A stretch of DNA of 64,000 nucleotides from an uncultured Candidatus Saccharibacteria bacterium (lineage in GTDB: Bacteria > Patescibacteriota > Saccharimonadia > Saccharimonadales > UBA10212), in contig CAZMNA010000002.1 in the NCBI GenBank assembly GCA_964567555.1, forward strand, positions 5,795-69,794, read 5' to 3'. Below are positions 9,908 to 57,554 of this stretch, in pieces. Within the stretch, counting starts at the first letter, position 1. The number at the start of each line of letters is the position of its first letter. Below the pieces are notes generated by a model. It did not search any database. It had not been told where the DNA came from and saw only the letters and a list, made by a program, of their open reading frames with translations. The position numbers and the translations under genes were made by a program.

Positions 9908-10822
9908 ATGAAATATGACCAAGCCGTAGCCGAATTTTTGGAGTACATGGAGCTAGAGCAAAACCGCTCTGCTAAGACAATTGAAAATTATAGCCACTAC
10001 CTGACCCGCCTATCCGACTTTGCCGGCGATATAAAGGTGTCTGATATAAATAGTGAGCTCATCCGCAAATGGCGCCTGTGGCTTAACCGGCTTGGCACTA
10101 ATACATCTGATGAATTGTCCAAAACTACCCAGAACTATCATTTAATTGCCGTGCGAAGCTTCTTAAAATTCTGCGCCAAGCGTGAATTTAGTGCCCTGCC
10201 CGCCGATAAAATTGAACTTGCCCGGACAACCCGGCCACAAGTGACTTTTTTGACTCCTGAGGAACTAGAAAGATTAACCAGCCAGACTAAAACCGAAAGT
10301 CTGTCCGGGCTGCGCGACAGAGCGATTATTGAACTGCTGTTTTCTAGCGGGCTTAGGGTCAGTGAATTAGTTGGTCTGGACGGCGACCATATTAATTTAG
10401 CGCGCCGGGAGTTCATGGTCCGCGGTAAAGGCCAAAAGGACCGGCCGATTTTTATAAGTAAAGAAGCAGCGGACTGGATAAGTAAATACCTAGAAAAACG
10501 TGAAGATAACGCCAAACCCATGTTCATCCGCTATAGTGGGCGCAGTAAAGCCGATACCAGCGGCAATTTTCAGCGCCTAACGGCGCGCAGCATCCAAAGA
10601 ATGGTTGCCCGTTATGCCCGTCTAGCCGGCATAACTAAGCACGTTTCTCCGCATACCCTGCGTCATAGTTTTGCTACTGACCTGCTTATGAATGGTGCGG
10701 ATTTACGCTCTGTGCAGGCTATGCTGGGCCACTCAAATATCGCTACTACCCAAATCTATACCCATGTAACCGATCCCCACCTGCGTGAGGTGCACGAAAA
10801 GTTCCATCGGAGCGGCAAATAG
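9908..10822 (+). CDS. tyrosine recombinase XerC/XerD-like
   Basis: C-terminal HTLRHSFATDLLMNGADLRSVQAMLGHSNIATTQIYTHV (R..HxxR..Y catalytic pattern). TGCTATAAT box at about 9872. Confidence 0.85.
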   Translation: MKYDQAVAEFLEYMELEQNRSAKTIENYSHYLTRLSDFAGDIKVSDINSELIRKWRLWLNRLGTNTSDELSKTTQNYHLIAVRSFLKFCAKREFSALPADKIELARTTRPQVTFLTPEELERLTSQTKTESLSGLRDRAIIELLFSSGLRVSELVGLDGDHINLARREFMVRGKGQKDRPIFISKEAADWISKYLEKREDNAKPMFIRYSGRSKADTSGNFQRLTARSIQRMVARYARLAGITKHVSPHTLRHSFATDLLMNGADLRSVQAMLGHSNIATTQIYTHVTDPHLREVHEKFHRSGK

Positions 10823-19160: not shown

Positions 19161-20972
19161 TTAGTTATCATCGCTCGCCGCTACGCGGTTAATTTCGGTT
19201 AGTGTCGAAATGCCGGCTAGAGCCTTTAGGTAACCATCTTGGCGCATGGTTATCATACCGCTGGTTTCCATAGCCGACCGTTGGATCATGGAACTGGTAG
19301 CGTGTTTTATGATTAAATCTTGAATACTTTCTGTCACCTCAAAAGCCTCGTATAAACCCATGCGGCCTTTATACCCAGTGGGGTTTTCCACTGTTGGTTT
19401 GGCCTTAACAAGAGTATAAGCGCTTTGGCGTGATAGGGGCAAGGTTTTGTAGCCCAAATCTTTAGCAACTTTTGGCATATCTTGCCTTGTTTTAGGTAGT
19501 AAATTGCCAATTGTTTCTGTGATTTCGGCTGTCTCTACCTTGGAAGATGAATAAGGTTCGCCGCCTGAGATTACCCGACGGACCAGCCTTTGACCAATGA
19601 CGGTGTGCACAGTGGAGGCAATCAAAAACGGCTCCACGCCCATGTCTAAAAGACGCGGCAAAATACCGGCAGCAGTGTTGGTGTGCAAAGTTGAGAAAAC
19701 CAAGTGGCCTGTCAAAGCAGCCTGGACGGCCAAGTTAGCCGTTTCGCGGTCACGAATTTCCCCCACCATCACAACATCCGGGTCCTGGCGCAAAATTGAG
19801 CGAAGCCCAGTCGCAAAAGTAAGCCCGACCTCCGGGTTAATTTGGATTTGGTTAACGCCGTCCATTTTGTATTCCACTGGATCTTCCAGCGTCACAATGT
19901 TAATGCTCTCTTTTTTGATCTCCTGAATCATGGCATACATGCTGGTGGTCTTACCAGAACCGGTCGGACCAGATGTCAAAATCATGCCATAAGGCCGCTT
20001 TAGACCTTTTCTGATTAAACGTAAGGTGCGGCCGGTGTAGCCCATAGCTTCCAGCTGGAAGCTGGAGCCCGATTTATCCAGTAAACGTAAGATTACCTGT
20101 TCTCCCCACACTGTCGGGCTAACGGCCACACGCAAGTCTATTTCATTTTTCTCTACCCTAATTGTGAATTGACCGTCCTGCGGAACCCGGTGCTCATCAA
20201 TTTTAAGGTTAGCCAAAATTTTTATACGTGAGATTAAGGGCGCTTCGGTGGATTTAGGCAGTCGCATAACCTCGCGCAATACGCCGTCTACCCGGCAACG
20301 GACTTTAAGTTCCTTTTCTTGGGGCTCAATATGGATGTCGCTGGCTTGGTTGCGCGCGGCAAATTCCATGAGAGCGTTGAGGGCTTTACTTATGGGTGAA
20401 TCTTCGTTAATAATCTGGACTTTTTTGCCGGCTTCTTTGGGCGTCAGTGCAGCCGTAGCAGCTTGGGCAGTCGCCTCGGCGGCCTCTTCGGCCTTAACCA
20501 GCAGGCTGGTCACGCCTTCGTCTATGTTACGGTCATATTGAGTGAGTGCTTTTCTTATTCCGGATTCGCTGGCGGCATAAACTTGCAAGGGCCGTCCAAT
20601 TTTATTACTCAGAAAATCGACAGCTTGGAGGTTGTCGGCATTAAGCATTGCCACCACCAACTTTTCATCCATTTCGCCAAGCGGGATAGCCATGTAGTGC
20701 TGGGCGGTATCGCGCGGTAATAGCGCCAGTATTTCCGGACTGACTTGGGGTGATTCGCTTAAATTGACGTATGGTATGCCATTAACAATAGCCGAGGCAC
20801 GGGTGAATTCTTCATCGGTTACTTTGCCTTCGTTTAAAAGGAGGCTAAAAAGCGGCTGGTGAGCGCTTGCCGCCTTCTTTTTATATTCAGCCAGGCTAGC
20901 CTGCGAGATAACGCCGTCTTTAACTAGCTCATCTTCCAGTTGGGCTTGGGTAGTCGCGTTTAAAACGCTCAT
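19161..20972 (-). CDS. pilB: type IV pilus assembly ATPase (GspE/PilB family)
   Basis: GPTGSGKTTS, VMVGEIRD. The start is set at ATG 20972 (MSVLN); the track ORF extends 15 nt into the repeat element. Confidence 0.9.
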   Translation of the reverse strand: MSVLNATTQAQLEDELVKDGVISQASLAEYKKKAASAHQPLFSLLLNEGKVTDEEFTRASAIVNGIPYVNLSESPQVSPEILALLPRDTAQHYMAIPLGEMDEKLVVAMLNADNLQAVDFLSNKIGRPLQVYAASESGIRKALTQYDRNIDEGVTSLLVKAEEAAEATAQAATAALTPKEAGKKVQIINEDSPISKALNALMEFAARNQASDIHIEPQEKELKVRCRVDGVLREVMRLPKSTEAPLISRIKILANLKIDEHRVPQDGQFTIRVEKNEIDLRVAVSPTVWGEQVILRLLDKSGSSFQLEAMGYTGRTLRLIRKGLKRPYGMILTSGPTGSGKTTSMYAMIQEIKKESINIVTLEDPVEYKMDGVNQIQINPEVGLTFATGLRSILRQDPDVVMVGEIRDRETANLAVQAALTGHLVFSTLHTNTAAGILPRLLDMGVEPFLIASTVHTVIGQRLVRRVISGGEPYSSSKVETAEITETIGNLLPKTRQDMPKVAKDLGYKTLPLSRQSAYTLVKAKPTVENPTGYKGRMGLYEAFEVTESIQDLIIKHATSSMIQRSAMETSGMITMRQDGYLKALAGISTLTEINRVAASDDN

Positions 20973-21082
20973 CCCGTTTGACTCCAATAAACGACCGTTA
21001 ATTTATAAGCGGCTTGAAGCAAGCAGTGGTGTTCAGGCGTTACACCTGAGCTGTAGGCTAAGTGGAGTCTTACGGGACTCAT
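20970..21082 (-). mobile_element. 113-nt inverted-repeat element, copy a (MITE-like or structured leader) on the pilB start codon
   Basis: Minus strand ATGAG-TCCCGTAAGACTCCA...TGGAGTCAAACGGG-ATGAG. See findings. Confidence 0.65.
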
Positions 21083-21343
21083 CTACTGCCCCGTGAATGG
21101 CTGTGGGTTAGTTTTCCCGCCAATTCTAATCAGCTGGGTTGGGTCTATCGCTCCCGGATTAAAGATTTTTTGGTAGCTGGGGTCACTTGATACCGATGGA
21201 AAGTTGGCGCTAATAGGCGTAACCACCGGAACTTGTACAGAACGACTCCCCGGTGAGCCAAAGACTGCCTTTGATATAACCAGGGAAAAGATAGCCGCCA
21301 CAATACCAACTACAATTATGAGATAAAGATCGCTGCGCTTCAT
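21083..21343 (-). CDS. 86-aa membrane-anchored protein of the pilus operon
   Basis: N-terminal TM helix, Pro/Ser-rich tail. It lies between the pilO-like gene and pilB, flanked by two repeat elements. Confidence 0.55.
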   Translation of the reverse strand: MKRSDLYLIIVVGIVAAIFSLVISKAVFGSPGSRSVQVPVVTPISANFPSVSSDPSYQKIFNPGAIDPTQLIRIGGKTNPQPFTGQ

Positions 21344-21453
21344 CCCGTTAGAACCTCACTTGACTTATTGCCCTTGGCTAACATTGGATAATCCGTGCTT
21401 GCTTCAAACGTCCTATGAACATTTAGTGCTTTCTGAGTTCTTACGGGATTCAT
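21341..21453 (-). mobile_element. 113-nt inverted-repeat element, copy b, on the start codon of the 86-aa gene
   Basis: Minus strand ATGAA-TCCCGTAAGAACTCA...TGAGGTTCTAACGGG-ATGAA. Confidence 0.65.
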
Positions 21454-22121
21454 TTGACCACCTTCTTAACGCTCAAGTTGACCGCTTGTGACTGCTGGTA
21501 GTAACTGTTCATGGTAAGAGTCATCTGCAATTGGCCATCACTGCCGGATAGTTCCAAAGTTGAAACATCAAACGGCCTGATAGACTTTTCAAAATCCTGC
21601 ATCACTTTTTGGTCAGTGTTGTAATCACTGGTCCCAGAAAGGCTAAAGCTCATAACCACGGAGCTTGGTTTGGCCACCGAAGTATTTGGATTACTGGCCG
21701 AATCATCAGTAACGCTGATGGATTGTATGTCCACGCCGTGATTACTCAAGATTTTTTCTACCGTTGAAGCTAGCGCTGGTGCGTCATAAGTACTTGGCAA
21801 AGCGTCTAAAACTATCTGGGCATTGTTACCATCCGTACCGCCACTGCCTGCCACGTTGCCCCCTAGTATATTTGGGTCAGCAGAAGCAAAGTTTTGATAG
21901 GCTTTGGCCAGTGCCTGAGCGGCAGTGTAGTTGGACTCTAACTGTTTGACTGCTTGGTTTTTGGCCGTTAGCACACGCTGTTGGTAGGCGCCTTTGCTTA
22001 TCATAGCCTTAATACCAAACAGGCAAAAAATGACTATAACCACAGATGCCGCCACAACGCCCAGCATTGTAGTTTGAGCTTTGTTTAGTTCGGCGTGTTT
22101 GCCCGATATATGCAGTGCCAT
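21450..22121 (-). CDS. PilO-like pilus alignment protein
   Basis: 223 aa; N-terminal TM plus coiled-coil region; position after pilN. Confidence 0.55.
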   Translation of the reverse strand: MALHISGKHAELNKAQTTMLGVVAASVVIVIFCLFGIKAMISKGAYQQRVLTAKNQAVKQLESNYTAAQALAKAYQNFASADPNILGGNVAGSGGTDGNNAQIVLDALPSTYDAPALASTVEKILSNHGVDIQSISVTDDSASNPNTSVAKPSSVVMSFSLSGTSDYNTDQKVMQDFEKSIRPFDVSTLELSGSDGQLQMTLTMNSYYQQSQAVNLSVKKVVK

Positions 22122-56792: not shown

Positions 56793-57554
56793 ATGAGCGT
56801 TATAACTATGCCCAAACTGCGGCGGCTAAACCTAATCGCCGGCTTGCTCCACCTGGCCCAAGGCGTGGCAGTACTACTCCTTTCTACCAATTTCAGCTTG
56901 CCTGTTACCGGCGGATATTTAAAATTTAACTCGGCTACAAAACACTTAGACCCGGGCAGTAACACGCTGTTTCATTTGCCCCTACCCTGGCTGGTGGCCA
57001 TCTTTTTCTTCTTGTCCGCCGCCTTCCATTTGGCTATCGCCACGTTTTATAACAAAACTTATGTCGCTAATCTGGCAAAAAATATCAACCGCGCCCGCTG
57101 GTTTGAATATTCGCTGTCGGCCGGTGTCATGATGGTCGCCATCGCGATGCTGGTGGGTATCTACGACGTCATGAGTCTACTGATGATATTTGTGCTGGTA
57201 GCCATAATGAACCTCACCGGCCTCGCCATGGAAGTTTATAACCAAGGCCGACAGAAGGTTAACTGGCTGGCTTACAGGCTCGGCAGTTTGGCCGGCATCG
57301 TGCCCTGGCTGGCGGTGGCTTTTTATATTGGCAACTCCAACCACGTCGGCAGCGGCGCACCGACCTTTGTTTACTTTATTTTTGGCAGCATCTTTATATT
57401 CTTTAGCTGTTTTGCACTCAACATGTACTTGCAGTACAAGTGTATCGGCAAATGGGCAGACTATCTTTACGGCGAAAAGGTCTACATTTGGCTAAGCCTC
57501 ATCGCTAAAAGCTTGCTTGCTTGGCAGGTCTTCGCCGGCACCCTCCGCCCTTAA
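56793..57554 (+). CDS. heliorhodopsin
   Basis: 253 aa, 7 TM. Strong resemblance, from memory of HeR 48C12, to RWVEYSLSSSVM (here RWFEYSLSAGVM), GIVPW (identical) and SLVAKSALAWQIFSGTL (here SLIAKSLLAWQVFAGTL, containing the Schiff-base Lys). Confidence 0.85.
   Translation: MSVITMPKLRRLNLIAGLLHLAQGVAVLLLSTNFSLPVTGGYLKFNSATKHLDPGSNTLFHLPLPWLVAIFFFLSAAFHLAIATFYNKTYVANLAKNINRARWFEYSLSAGVMMVAIAMLVGIYDVMSLLMIFVLVAIMNLTGLAMEVYNQGRQKVNWLAYRLGSLAGIVPWLAVAFYIGNSNHVGSGAPTFVYFIFGSIFIFFSCFALNMYLQYKCIGKWADYLYGEKVYIWLSLIAKSLLAWQVFAGTLRP

Follow-up and report, generated by a model that had tools for sequence, protein, structure and literature searches.

The DNA analyzed here, a stretch of 64,000 nucleotides that we refer to as the window, contains on its minus strand a type IV pilus operon and a truB gene (Table 1). 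At the start codons of pilB, of a pilus-operon gene encoding an 86-aa protein, and of truB lie three copies, all on the minus strand, of a short element with terminal inverted repeats (copies a, b, and c). The preliminary description had reported copies a and b as 113-nt elements at minus-strand positions 21082 to 20970 and 21453 to 21341; the sequences are as reported, although the 113 nt are composed of a 5-nt left flank, a 105-nt core, and the 3 nt of the right-hand ATG. Both copies read ATGAG or ATGAA, then TCCCGTAAGA...TCWAACGGG, then ATG. Copy c was detected in a window scan using the 9-mers alone. Single 9-mers do not exceed their expected frequency in the window; only paired 9-mers at the correct spacing are regarded as real elements. 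The 86-aa gene product has no Pfam match, and we note that the mechanically generated open reading frame list places the pilB start at a TTG inside the element.

Table 1. Coordinates of the element copies, their parts, and the neighboring genes in the window
Feature	Coordinates	Strand	Remarks
pilB, type IV pilus assembly ATPase, 603 aa	19161..20972	-	Downstream of copy a; Pfam T2SSE and MshEN domains
Copy a, right target-site duplication ATGAG	20968..20972	-	First 5 nt of pilB (MSVLN...)
Copy a, bridging mini-ORF, 37 codons, MSPVRLHLAYSSGVTPEHHCLLQAAYKLTVVYWSQTG*	20969..21082	-	TGA stop overlaps pilB ATG (ATGA)
Copy a, core, 105 nt, TCCCGTAAGACTCCA...TGGAGTCAAACGGG	20973..21077	-	At pilB start codon; model R1, 77.4 bits
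Copy a, left target-site duplication ATGAG	21078..21082	-	Directly 3' of the TAG stop of the 86-aa gene; begins mini-ORF
86-aa membrane-protein gene, pilus operon	21083..21343	-	Downstream of copy b, upstream of copy a; orthologues in L017, L018, and L019
Copy b, right target-site duplication ATGAA	21339..21343	-	First 5 nt of 86-aa gene (MKRSD...)
Copy b, bridging mini-ORF, 37 codons, MNPVRTQKALNVHRTFEASTDYPMLAKGNKSSEVLTG*	21340..21453	-	TGA overlaps ATG of 86-aa gene; called as gene P0122 by public gene callers
Copy b, core, 105 nt, TCCCGTAAGAACTCA...TGAGGTTCTAACGGG	21344..21448	-	At start codon of 86-aa pilus-operon gene; model R1, 89.1 bits
Copy b, left target-site duplication ATGAA	21449..21453	-	Contains TGA stop of PilO-like gene (GTC AAA TGA); AAGGTGG Shine-Dalgarno just upstream
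PilO-position gene, 223 aa	21450..22121	-	TGA stop within left ATGAA of copy b; no Pfam match
truB, tRNA pseudouridine-55 synthase	45574..46221	-	Downstream of copy c; TruB_N and TruB_C_2 domains
Copy c, right target-site duplication ATGGA	46217..46221	-	First 5 nt of truB (MDGVLL...)
Copy c, core, 104 nt	46222..46325	-	At truB start codon; model R1, 81.1 bits; absent from the preliminary description
Copy c, bridging mini-ORF, 34 codons, MDPVRTHLTSKLGLTVEHVNYYQHTFSLVTFLRF*	46226..46330	-	Ends at TAA in right arm (TCTAACGGG), TAA starting 7 nt before truB ATG
Copy c, left target-site duplication ATGGA	46326..46330	-	11 nt downstream of TACAAT -10-like box

Beyond the window, scans with patterns lacking the ATG together with a covariance model raise the copy number to 18, spread over 15 distinct gene junctions and no fewer than eight lineages, although the copies are not fully independent samples (L002a, L002b, and L002d, for example). 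A gene ATG follows the element directly in 17 of the 18, and none of them lies at a random intergenic position, the placement that the preliminary description had named as evidence against its reading. Its proposed genome and metagenome scan, run with the ATG-free pattern, gave nine real copies, all adjoining an ATG and eight having the same ATGRR on both sides. The association with start codons of the pilus operon holds for both pil copies, but the range of targets is wider, including truB, rpmC, an ftsX-like gene, polA, a T4SS-pilin gene, and others. Cores are usually 104 to 114 nt long, with short forms of 67 and 85 nt. Four copies lie within 8 kb in the L002 lineage, and the copy at an unrelated junction in L028 is 76 to 87% identical to three of the L002-lineage copies. 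One junction (L015) carries a tandem, arranged as ATGAA-(85 nt)-ATGAA-(114 nt)-ATGAA-gene; the remaining copies are all single. Seven further pattern matches (five distinct sequences) have neither extended inverted repeats nor an ATG and were attributed to chance; the chance matches that were examined and dropped are L001, L004, L005, L007, L008, L012, L014, and L027, along with a pair at 44-109 of L011, within rpsN. The single match in viral contigs is also a chance match, and viral contigs were rejected as carriers.

The terminal inverted repeats are about 14 bp long, pairing over about 14 to 16 nt (TCCCGTAAGAnnnnn / nnnnnTCWAACGGGA). The preliminary description had proposed that the arms pair and that the copies show compensatory differences in the distal stem, and this is borne out by an alignment of 15 copies, in which 98.1% of cells are paired, compared to 31 to 58% when the partner is slid by one to three columns. 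Among the 14 paired positions, four stem pairs show double changes, and the covariation score is 0.278 versus 0.108 in shuffles, with none of 500 shuffles reaching 0.278. The arm pairing and covariation are not a product of chance. RNAalifold supports the terminal stem alone, with interior folds differing from copy to copy, and the base of the stem sets the two pentamers side by side. The stem contains a fixed internal mismatch (A opposite A, position 7), the right arm is TC[TA]AAC in 17 of the 18 copies, and the ends keep nearly the same polarity with respect to the gene throughout. Hardly any variation is seen at the termini, but the interiors are only about 50% identical, even among copies from one genome, a combination that one would not readily predict for a purely selfish MITE undergoing decay. 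An inverted 12-mer match shared by copies a and b had suggested that b is simply inverted; once more copies were compared, a and c proved to be the odd ones, and in their interiors only, which are inverted relative to the other copies with the terminal mismatch bases retaining the same polarity, a point that tells against the MITE-like reading. We also considered a known structured RNA, such as a riboswitch, ribozyme, or leader; Rfam has no match at the elements at gathering thresholds, nor at E<=1 over positions 20900-21520.

Evidence for mobility comes from the flanking pentamers and from empty sites. As the preliminary description had it, the pentamer is duplicated and differs among copies (AA, AG, or GA following ATG) yet matches itself, with identical pentamers on both sides in 15 of the 18 copies, including the rarer forms ATGAG (two copies) and ATGGA (one copy). 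The three exceptions (L002b, L002d, and L010) reflect decay or mismatch on a single side, the flanks of L010 being ACGTG on the left and ATGGA on the right. The predicted junctions were also recovered: removing the element and one pentamer at pilB leaves CAGTAG followed directly by ATGAGCGTT, the stop abutting pilB MSVLN, and the same operation at the 86-aa gene leaves GTCAAATGAAGCGC, an ATGA stop/start overlap after AAGGTGG. Empty sites, which the preliminary description had suggested seeking in relatives, are present at both pil junctions (L017, L018, and L019, all three being empty at the 86-aa gene) and at truB (L031 and L032). Those of L017, L031, and L032 contain the window's pentamer exactly once: L017 reads cattagcctATGAGcgtttta at the pilB junction and aaaataATGAAacgc at the 86-aa gene junction, and L031 and L032 each have a single ATGGA at truB. 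Insertion is thus shown to occur at ATGRR (ATGAA, less often ATGAG or ATGGA) with duplication of the pentamer.

Could the element instead be an immobile, vertically inherited structured leader or intercistronic regulatory RNA, the pentamers being part of its motif? The junction between pilO and the small gene is occupied in three genomes (the window, L003, and L006), as such a reading would have it, and the ends and length are conserved while the interior drifts. However, the window and the distant pair L003 and L006 carry an element at that junction, which is empty in the window's nearest relative, L017, and an empty site is found in close relatives at each of the three window positions. Unrelated genes are hit, copies occur in tandem, copies at different loci share 75 to 87% identity, the pentamers vary yet match, and Rfam gives nothing even at E<=1; we consider an immobile RNA scarcely credible. 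A MITE-like element, as the preliminary description proposed, is supported by the terminal inverted repeats, the flanking duplication, cores of 67 to 114 nt lacking transposase coding, dispersed copies, and empty sites.

In the window, only 21 of 353 ATGAA, ATGAG, or ATGGA sites are predicted gene starts and 37 of 353 are noncoding, and such a pentamer opens only 21 of the 65 predicted genes, yet every copy is at a start. An extended target motif was sought, and the flanking sequences show no consensus past the pentamer in either direction.

Among the 40 largest open reading frames of the window, Pfam searches identified no transposase with matching ends and no RAYT, TnpA, or Y1 gene, and 178 kb of fetched DNA contains no solo or long-range termini. 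A parent insertion sequence whose transposase begins at the host ATG (MNPVR...) was also considered; a profile search with the mini-ORFs returned only four mini-ORFs of the element itself, and no long protein starting MNPVR from a collection of 5.8 billion proteins, a weak negative given that the word index needs several shared 5-mers. Because no cognate transposase was found, the MITE label rests on structure and insertion polymorphism. An alternative is that the element is mobilized not by a DDE transposase acting on inverted repeats, but in single-stranded, hairpin-folded form by a structure-specific enzyme, either an HUH/Y1 transposase (as for REPINs and IS200/IS605-derived palindromic elements) or a tyrosine recombinase (as for integron attC sites), with ATGRR as the recognition or crossover sequence. 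The only recombinase seen in the window is an Xer-like tyrosine recombinase, with no cassette array. The pattern of conservation (terminal boxes, a fixed mismatch, and a covarying stem) is nearer to that of attC sites or REPINs than to a typical young MITE, the interior is free in sequence, length (67 to 114 nt), and even orientation, and the near-constant polarity of the ends, with TC[TA]AAC as the right arm, points the same way. Nonetheless, IS200/IS605 elements and REPINs have no target duplication, whereas a staggered cut automatically explains pentamers that vary but match, and the GTWRRR and YYYAAC boxes stand in the reverse of the attC order. Together with the lack of RAYT and TnpA genes among the window ORFs searched, these points make single-strand mobilization quite improbable.

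Returning to a MITE-like element, a second feature is that a reading frame passes through it. Reading from the left ATG, the frame stays open across the element in 13 of the 16 copies tested, compared to a mean of 2.8 and a maximum of nine for shuffled interiors (5000 trials), and the other two sense frames are open in none and two of the 16. The mini-ORF begins at an ATG that overlaps or directly adjoins the upstream stop; at its other end, its stop overlaps the gene ATG or lies before it, at +1 (TGA) or -7 (TAA) relative to this ATG, or else the open frame is fused to the gene. In L002b an in-frame element precedes a gene whose own start has decayed from ATG to ATA, and this gene must therefore now be translated through the element. 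L003b is in frame ahead of a prepilin leader, and in L002d, with its decayed left pentamer, the mini-ORF begins at an in-frame ATG lying 6 nt upstream. The peptide is not conserved, with 14 nucleotide changes altering 10 of 35 residues. We rejected a conserved peptide because the invariant part is only MxPVR, which is forced by the left arm, and because changes between recent copies are mostly nonsynonymous. Gene callers annotate the mini-ORFs as hypothetical genes (P0121-P0124).

Bridging is not the sole route to expression, because the mini-ORF stops early in L006 and L010, stops 23 nt before the ATG in L015a, and is closed in L015b. An alternative is that the same mobile element leaves genes expressed without being translated, either by a hairpin loop-out that joins the Shine-Dalgarno sequence to the second ATG, as in the split ribosome-binding site of phage T4 gene 38, or by a double-strand-specific RNase that cuts the stem to give a near-leaderless mRNA starting just before the ATG. 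A conserved and covarying terminal stem of at least 14 bp, whose base brings the pentamers together, is suited to such a role, the long downstream open reading frames in L006 and L010 are intact in spite of their broken mini-ORFs, and several targets lie 6 to 19 nt after TATAAT-like boxes, suggestive of short-leader or leaderless mRNAs. But this leaves unexplained why 13 of 16 left-ATG frames are open when about three are expected, why the stops fall at +1 and -7, and the obligate in-frame fusion of L002b, and we regard expression without translation of the element as rather unlikely.

We therefore favor, as the likely explanation from these sequences, that the copies represent a nonautonomous MITE-like element of Saccharibacteria and related CPR bacteria, tolerated at start codons through a bridging mini-ORF that keeps translational coupling. 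On the left, the duplication would retain the initial ribosome-binding context with its ATG and, where present, an overlapping TGA stop of the upstream gene; on the right, it would rebuild an intact gene ATG. Ribosomes that initiate at the left-hand ATG would read a mini-ORF of about 35 codons (M-x-P-V-R...) through the element, melting the terminal stem, with one of three outcomes set by element length modulo 3: a TGA overlapping the gene ATG, a right-arm TAA starting 7 nt before the ATG, or in-frame reading into the gene. Expression of the host gene would be preserved because the TGA and TAA stops fall within termination-reinitiation or unfolding-coupling distance, and the genes behind the element probably remain expressed. 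Among gene junctions, NTGA is the most frequent, and adding fewer than 20 nt between stop and start lowers coupling (PMC12548453). Only start-codon copies would persist, because insertions elsewhere would break genes or be lost. After insertion, the gene would come to depend on the element's open frame and ends, which would then be kept by selection.

A stronger version of this proposal, which we put forward only tentatively and consider doubtful, is that these elements constitute a class of transposon, not described before, that is 'translationally transparent' and homes to start codons. Its ends would have evolved to give an open M-x-P-V-R... on the left and TAA/TGA stops in two frames on the right, so that any insertion at ATGRR at a gene start yields a relay ORF on which the host gene is dependent afterwards; selection at the host level, rather than transposase binding, would preserve the hairpin, length class, and frame over long periods. 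Such an element would be an addictive intercistronic module, whose stem possibly has a regulatory role. In this version, targeting may draw on cues beyond the 5-nt sequence, such as features of translation-initiation regions.

In CPR bacteria such as Saccharibacteria, genomes are very small and densely packed with genes, neutral DNA being almost absent, and the persistence of any mobile element in them is therefore puzzling. The element suggests one route to persistence, in which it lands in ATGRR at a start, both starts are rebuilt, and ribosomes pass through. If confirmed, this would be a new target-site strategy among bacterial transposons, would provide natural inserted relay ORFs for the study of termination-reinitiation and hairpin unfolding, and would show a way for mobile DNA to give rise to N-terminal extensions, as in L003b and the obligate fusion in L002b. 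There are also consequences for annotation: the mini-ORFs are called as hypothetical genes or leave gaps of about 110 nt, and start codons may be misplaced.

We found no prior description of the element in a literature search, and the open frame through it is a new observation. It shares with attC sites, REPINs, and IS200/IS605-derived palindromic elements a hairpin of about 60 to 140 nt in which the terminal boxes and a mismatch are conserved and the center varies. However, integron attC sites have the form 5'-RYYYAAC...GTTRRRY-3', whereas the element reads GTWAGA...TCWAAC on either strand; attC systems generate no target-site duplication, and no integron integrase-plus-attI platform was seen in the window. 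IS200/IS605-derived elements and REPINs insert without duplication 3' of a fixed tetra- or pentanucleotide, have separate subterminal hairpins, and have a Y1 gene, whereas here the ends pair together. Tn3-derived TIMEs share a 5-bp duplication, but the ends here begin TCCCGT and pair over only about 14 to 16 nt, whereas Tn3-type inverted repeats are roughly 38 bp and begin GGGG.

The bacterial MITEs, including Correia/CREE of Neisseria, ERIC, RUP, Nezha, and MITEAba12, are similar in their length (about 100 nt), the lack of a transposase gene, terminal inverted repeats that fold as an RNA stem, flanking direct repeats, multiple dispersed copies, and sites that are empty or filled in relatives; occasional in-frame fusions with host ORFs are also described for them (review PMC3184786). 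They differ in that the known families duplicate TA or a nonspecific 2 to 9 bp and occupy intergenic or gene-end positions, and no parent insertion sequence was found for the element here in the searches above. Our literature search identified no described MITE family with systematic start-codon positioning, an ATG-recreating duplication, and a selected open frame. The REP2 repeats of Neisseria and the upstream repeats of Borrelia lie immediately upstream of genes, fused to the translation start (PMC3184786), but REP2 brings its own promoter, ribosome-binding site, and ATG and has no terminal inverted repeats, whereas the element here reuses the host ATG by duplication. The nearest functional analogue of the bridging mini-ORF is MIRU (Supply et al. 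1997), which lies between operon cistrons, carries small ORFs overlapping the stops and starts of its neighbors, and is flanked by 4-nt direct repeats, with a relative having empty sites (PMC3184786). The resemblance is functional only: MIRUs are 40- to 100-bp units of Mycobacterium, a different phylum, often in tandem arrays (VNTRs) and with imperfect inverted repeats only, they are not reported to target ATG, and they share no sequence with the element. Finally, translationally coupled NTGA junctions and short upstream ORFs that relay ribosomes are comparable in that the element's stops rebuild the most frequent bacterial junction (ATGA) or leave a 4-nt gap, and in that translation of the upstream ORF would unfold the stem around the downstream ATG (PMC12548453); the difference is that the upstream ORF here derives from a mobile insertion, rather than from a resident gene.

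The preliminary description placed two inverted-repeat elements of 113 nt at the starts of pilB and an 86-aa gene, and both elements stand, but the length does not: it counts, besides the 105-nt core, the pentamer on the left and the ATG on the right. These are copies a and b; a third, copy c, lies at truB (see table). The pentamer was also described as duplicated and differing between copies, which holds for all three. The coding sequence of pilB (Pfam T2SSE and MshEN) begins with the right-hand pentamer of copy a, and that of the 86-aa gene of the pilMN...BTC operon with the right-hand pentamer of copy b; on the left, the pentamer of copy a abuts the TAG of the 86-aa gene, and that of copy b, preceded by AAGGTGG, holds the TGA stop of the PilO-position gene. 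Copy c was detected by a search with the terminal 9-mers, which show no enrichment in the window when counted singly; only paired occurrences at the correct spacing are real elements. A long terminal stem folds in each window copy, on either strand, and Rfam gave no match, whether gathering thresholds or E<=1 was applied. Copies a and b both recur in each of the conspecific strains recovered from several samples, and PilB and TruB homologues assign the window to Saccharibacteria/Saccharimonadales. Start-site annotation is error-prone near the elements, and public gene callers record the mini-ORFs, short frames opened by the left ATG, as hypothetical proteins (P0121-P0124).

Locations of element copies and other features in the window and in fetched loci (L numbers)
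Feature	Location	Strand	Remarks
Copy a, 105 nt	window 21077->20973	minus	Starts TCCCGTAAGA, ends TCWAACGGG; ATGAG on both flanks
Copy b, 105 nt	window 21448->21344	minus	Starts TCCCGTAAGA, ends TCWAACGGG; ATGAA on both flanks
Copy c, 104 nt	window 46325->46222	minus	ATGGA on both flanks; exactly at truB start
pilB in ORF list	window 19161-20987	minus	Starts at TTG in copy a right arm (MESNGMSVLN...); public gene calls use ATG (603 aa)
Xer-like tyrosine recombinase	window 9908-10822	plus	
Gene upstream of truB	window 46357-47889	minus	Weak DHH-domain match; long low-complexity stretch and proline-rich tail; proline-rich C-termini also in L031 and L032 relatives
Heliorhodopsin gene	window 56793-57554	plus	Full-length (Pfam PF18761, E 2e-91); adjoins small unknown ORFs and a Fic-domain gene
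T4SS_pilin (VirB2-like) array	L002 3413-6187; L020 4214-6988	minus; plus	Five consecutive paralogues
Phage_integrase gene	L020 11089-12790	minus	L002/L020 counterpart of the Xer-like gene; seemingly split by an intein that carries a LAGLIDADG endonuclease domain
L003 short form, 67 nt	L003 1442-1508	plus	In frame upstream of a prepilin gene (MKIFGRPLKDRGFTSVEML...)
L010 copy	L010 1011-1131	minus	Sole copy with wholly mismatched flanks (left ACGTG, right ATGGA); mini-ORF closed; AAGG 6 nt ahead of element
Different direct repeat, ~70 nt	L015 ~1400-1627	plus	Just upstream of tandem pair; translated motif ...HLLSNALQIADHRGLNRALLD* twice
Short ORFs of 103, 80, and 107 aa	L032 395-1404	plus	Consecutive; all match DNA_pol_A, which suggests a fragmented or frameshifted polA

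Beyond the window, genome and metagenome collections were scanned with the pattern TCCCGTAAGANNNCA-N65-90-TCWAACGGG, from which the flanking ATG was left out. Nine of the 16 matches (L002, L003, L006, L009, L010, L011, L013, L015, and L016) have extended inverted repeats; the ATG of a long ORF follows directly in all nine, with an identical ATGRR on the left in eight. The other seven (five distinct sequences) are chance matches, lacking extended repeats and an adjacent ATG, and are about as numerous as expected. A covariance model built on 12 copies added the short form in L003 and raised L002 by three to four copies, which lie at successive gene starts inside 8 kb; a terminus scan found a second element, of 85 nt, abutting the L015 copy, and look-up of a mini-ORF protein gave an eighteenth copy, in L028. 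The matching pentamers and start-codon positions of the preliminary description recur in this wider set: the pentamer is identical on both sides in 15 of 18 copies (ATGAA, 12; ATGAG, 2; ATGGA, 1), and the gene's ATG follows directly in 17, the exception being L002b, where it has decayed to ATA. Host genes include pilB, the small pilus-operon gene (in three genomes), several T4SS-pilin genes, and a prepilin gene, together with truB, rpmC, two ftsX-like genes, an ldh/mdh-like gene, a solute-binding protein (SBP) gene, and polA. Because copies occupy the starts of three of the five T4SS_pilin paralogues in L002/L020, the family has spread along this array, whose genes all begin ATGAA. Any N-terminal extension encoded by the L003 short form would presumably be cleaved off, along with the leader peptide, by prepilin peptidase. 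The mismatched flanks and closed mini-ORF in L010 possibly reflect recombination between two copies, flank deletion, or a different expression mode.

The empty sites for which the preliminary description proposed a search are present in relatives. In L017, the nearest available (PilB 77% identical, PilO-like 55%), both pil junctions are empty, with the pentamer present once at each (...aaaataATGAAacgc... and ...cattagcctATGAGcgtttta...), and they are also empty in L018 and L019. The truB start in L031 and L032 has a single ATGGA, so matching empty sites exist for all three window copies. The elements have inserted, with duplication of the pentamer. There are also signs of mobility. First, L015 has the order ATGAA-[85 nt]-ATGAA-[114 nt]-ATGAA-gene, the expected outcome if a second insertion struck the regenerated target. 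Second, the L028 copy, at a tsaE/polA junction, is 76 to 87% identical to L002a, L002b, and L002d, which lie at gyrA/SBP, SBP/pilin, and pilin/pilin junctions, respectively. Third, the pilO/small-gene junction carries an element in the window and also in L003/L006, a distant sister pair, and is empty in the three genomes nearest the window, a pattern requiring either two or more independent insertions or several losses that were precise. Distribution is patchy, as ~106 kb of DNA from relatives and just past the window edge (L017-L019 and L031-L033) contains no copy. As to a mobilizing enzyme, the 40 largest window ORFs include no transposase, and the only recombinase among them is Xer-like. 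No solo or long-range termini occur in 178 kb of fetched DNA, and neither a long protein starting with the mini-ORF sequence nor an element in viral contigs was found.

The preference for start codons is greater than the pentamer alone accounts for. The window contains 353 ATGAA, ATGAG, or ATGGA sites, of which 21 are predicted gene starts and 37 are noncoding. If all intragenic insertions were lethal, ~36% of survivors would be expected at starts, whereas all copies are there. Likewise, these pentamers begin only 21 of the 65 predicted window genes, yet all copies use them. Thus, both an ATGRR preference and a positional filter act. No consensus extends past the pentamer on either flank; 11 targets are compact stop/start junctions, where the codons either overlap (ATGA, TAATG, or TGATG) or abut, and several others are 6 to 19 nt downstream of TATAAT-like boxes. 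Coding density in the window is 88%, and we suggest that the filter is survivorship in dense genomes: insertions within genes would be lethal, copies in the scarce spacer would be harmful or soon deleted, and a copy at a start codon could be removed only precisely.

In 13 of 16 copies tested, the frame from the left ATG, M-(N/S/D)-P-V-R..., runs without a stop as far as the right arm, compared with a mean of 2.8 and a maximum of 9 when interiors are shuffled (5,000 trials); of the remaining sense frames, one is open in none and the other in two of the 16. Of two later additions, L028 is open and L015b is closed. Where the frame ends is set by (5+length) mod 3: at a TGA overlapping the gene's ATG (a, b, L003a, and L013), at a TAA in TCTAACGGG beginning 7 nt before the ATG (c, L002a, L002c, L002d, L009, L011, L016, and L028), or by running in frame into the gene (L002b and L003b). 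With its own ATG lost, the L002b gene appears to be translated through the element, 37 element-encoded residues forming its N terminus; in L002d, where the left pentamer has decayed to GTAAA, a same-frame ATG 6 nt upstream opens the mini-ORF. A conserved peptide is ruled out, as only MxPVR, forced by the left arm, is invariant, and 14 nucleotide changes among recent copies give 10 residue differences; selection appears to act on openness, not on peptide sequence. According to a review of translational coupling (PMC12548453), NTGA is the commonest gene junction, increasing stop-start spacing by <20 nt can strongly cut coupling, and ribosomes on an upstream ORF melt the structure surrounding the following start. 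Given these properties and the frame statistics, the element looks built as a ribosome relay from the original start to the displaced gene, which the sequence statistics and the L002b fusion strongly suggest. The exceptions to a bridging frame are L006 and L010, which stop early and whose frame would in any case have no terminal stop, and L015a, which stops 23 nt ahead of the ATG; expression in these cases may instead involve loop-out of the hairpin or processing of the RNA.

In the terminal stem, 98.1% of cells are paired, versus 31 to 58% when slid. Compensatory changes, already noted in the preliminary description, occur at four positions, and the covariation score is 0.278, compared to 0.108 in shuffles, none of 500 of which reach it. 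A hairpin, of RNA or DNA, would account for such a stem, and so equally would inverted repeats that a single transposase binds. Compared with b, L003a, L006, L009, L013, and L016, copies a and c have inverted interiors and subterminal motifs (forward-minus-reverse alignment scores of -17 to -27 between groups and +24 for a versus c), whereas the outer ~10 nt, including an A-opposite-A mismatch, keep one orientation with respect to the gene in almost every copy (left arm GTAAGA in 12 of 18; right arm TC[TA]AAC in 17 of 18). Whole-element inversion does not account for this. The L003 short form has T opposite T at its mismatch and thus may be the sole copy of reverse polarity. The fixed polarity is possibly translational, as GTT-TGA in the left arm would terminate the mini-ORF and the TAA draws on the A of the right arm; another possibility is that a single ancestral flip of the interior between the arms founded the a/c subfamily. 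The interiors of a, b, and c are only 52 to 58% identical, although the 15-nt termini of b and c are identical, reflecting either different master copies or selection on the ends in place.

The data support a MITE-like family in which a 5-bp ATGRR duplication and a mini-ORF that probably acts as the relay permit occupancy of start codons in highly compact genomes; empty sites, matching pentamers, and the predominance of open frames agree with the initial reading of elements that land on start codons and keep the operon translatable. IS200/IS605-type elements, REPINs, attC sites, and Tn3-derived miniature elements each differ in a defining feature from the elements here. In the full-text literature, within its incomplete coverage, no MITE is reported to target start codons or to join duplication to translational coupling, and nothing of the kind is reported for Saccharibacteria or Patescibacteria. 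The elements have the structure that defines MITEs, except for a known parent. In-frame fusion with host genes can occur with RPE, RUP, and BOX elements, and Neisseria REP2 brings its own RBS and ATG (PMC3184786). The closest functional analogue is the mycobacterial MIRU, which has 4-nt direct repeats, small ORFs that overlap the cistrons on either side, and sites that are empty in a relative (PMC3184786).
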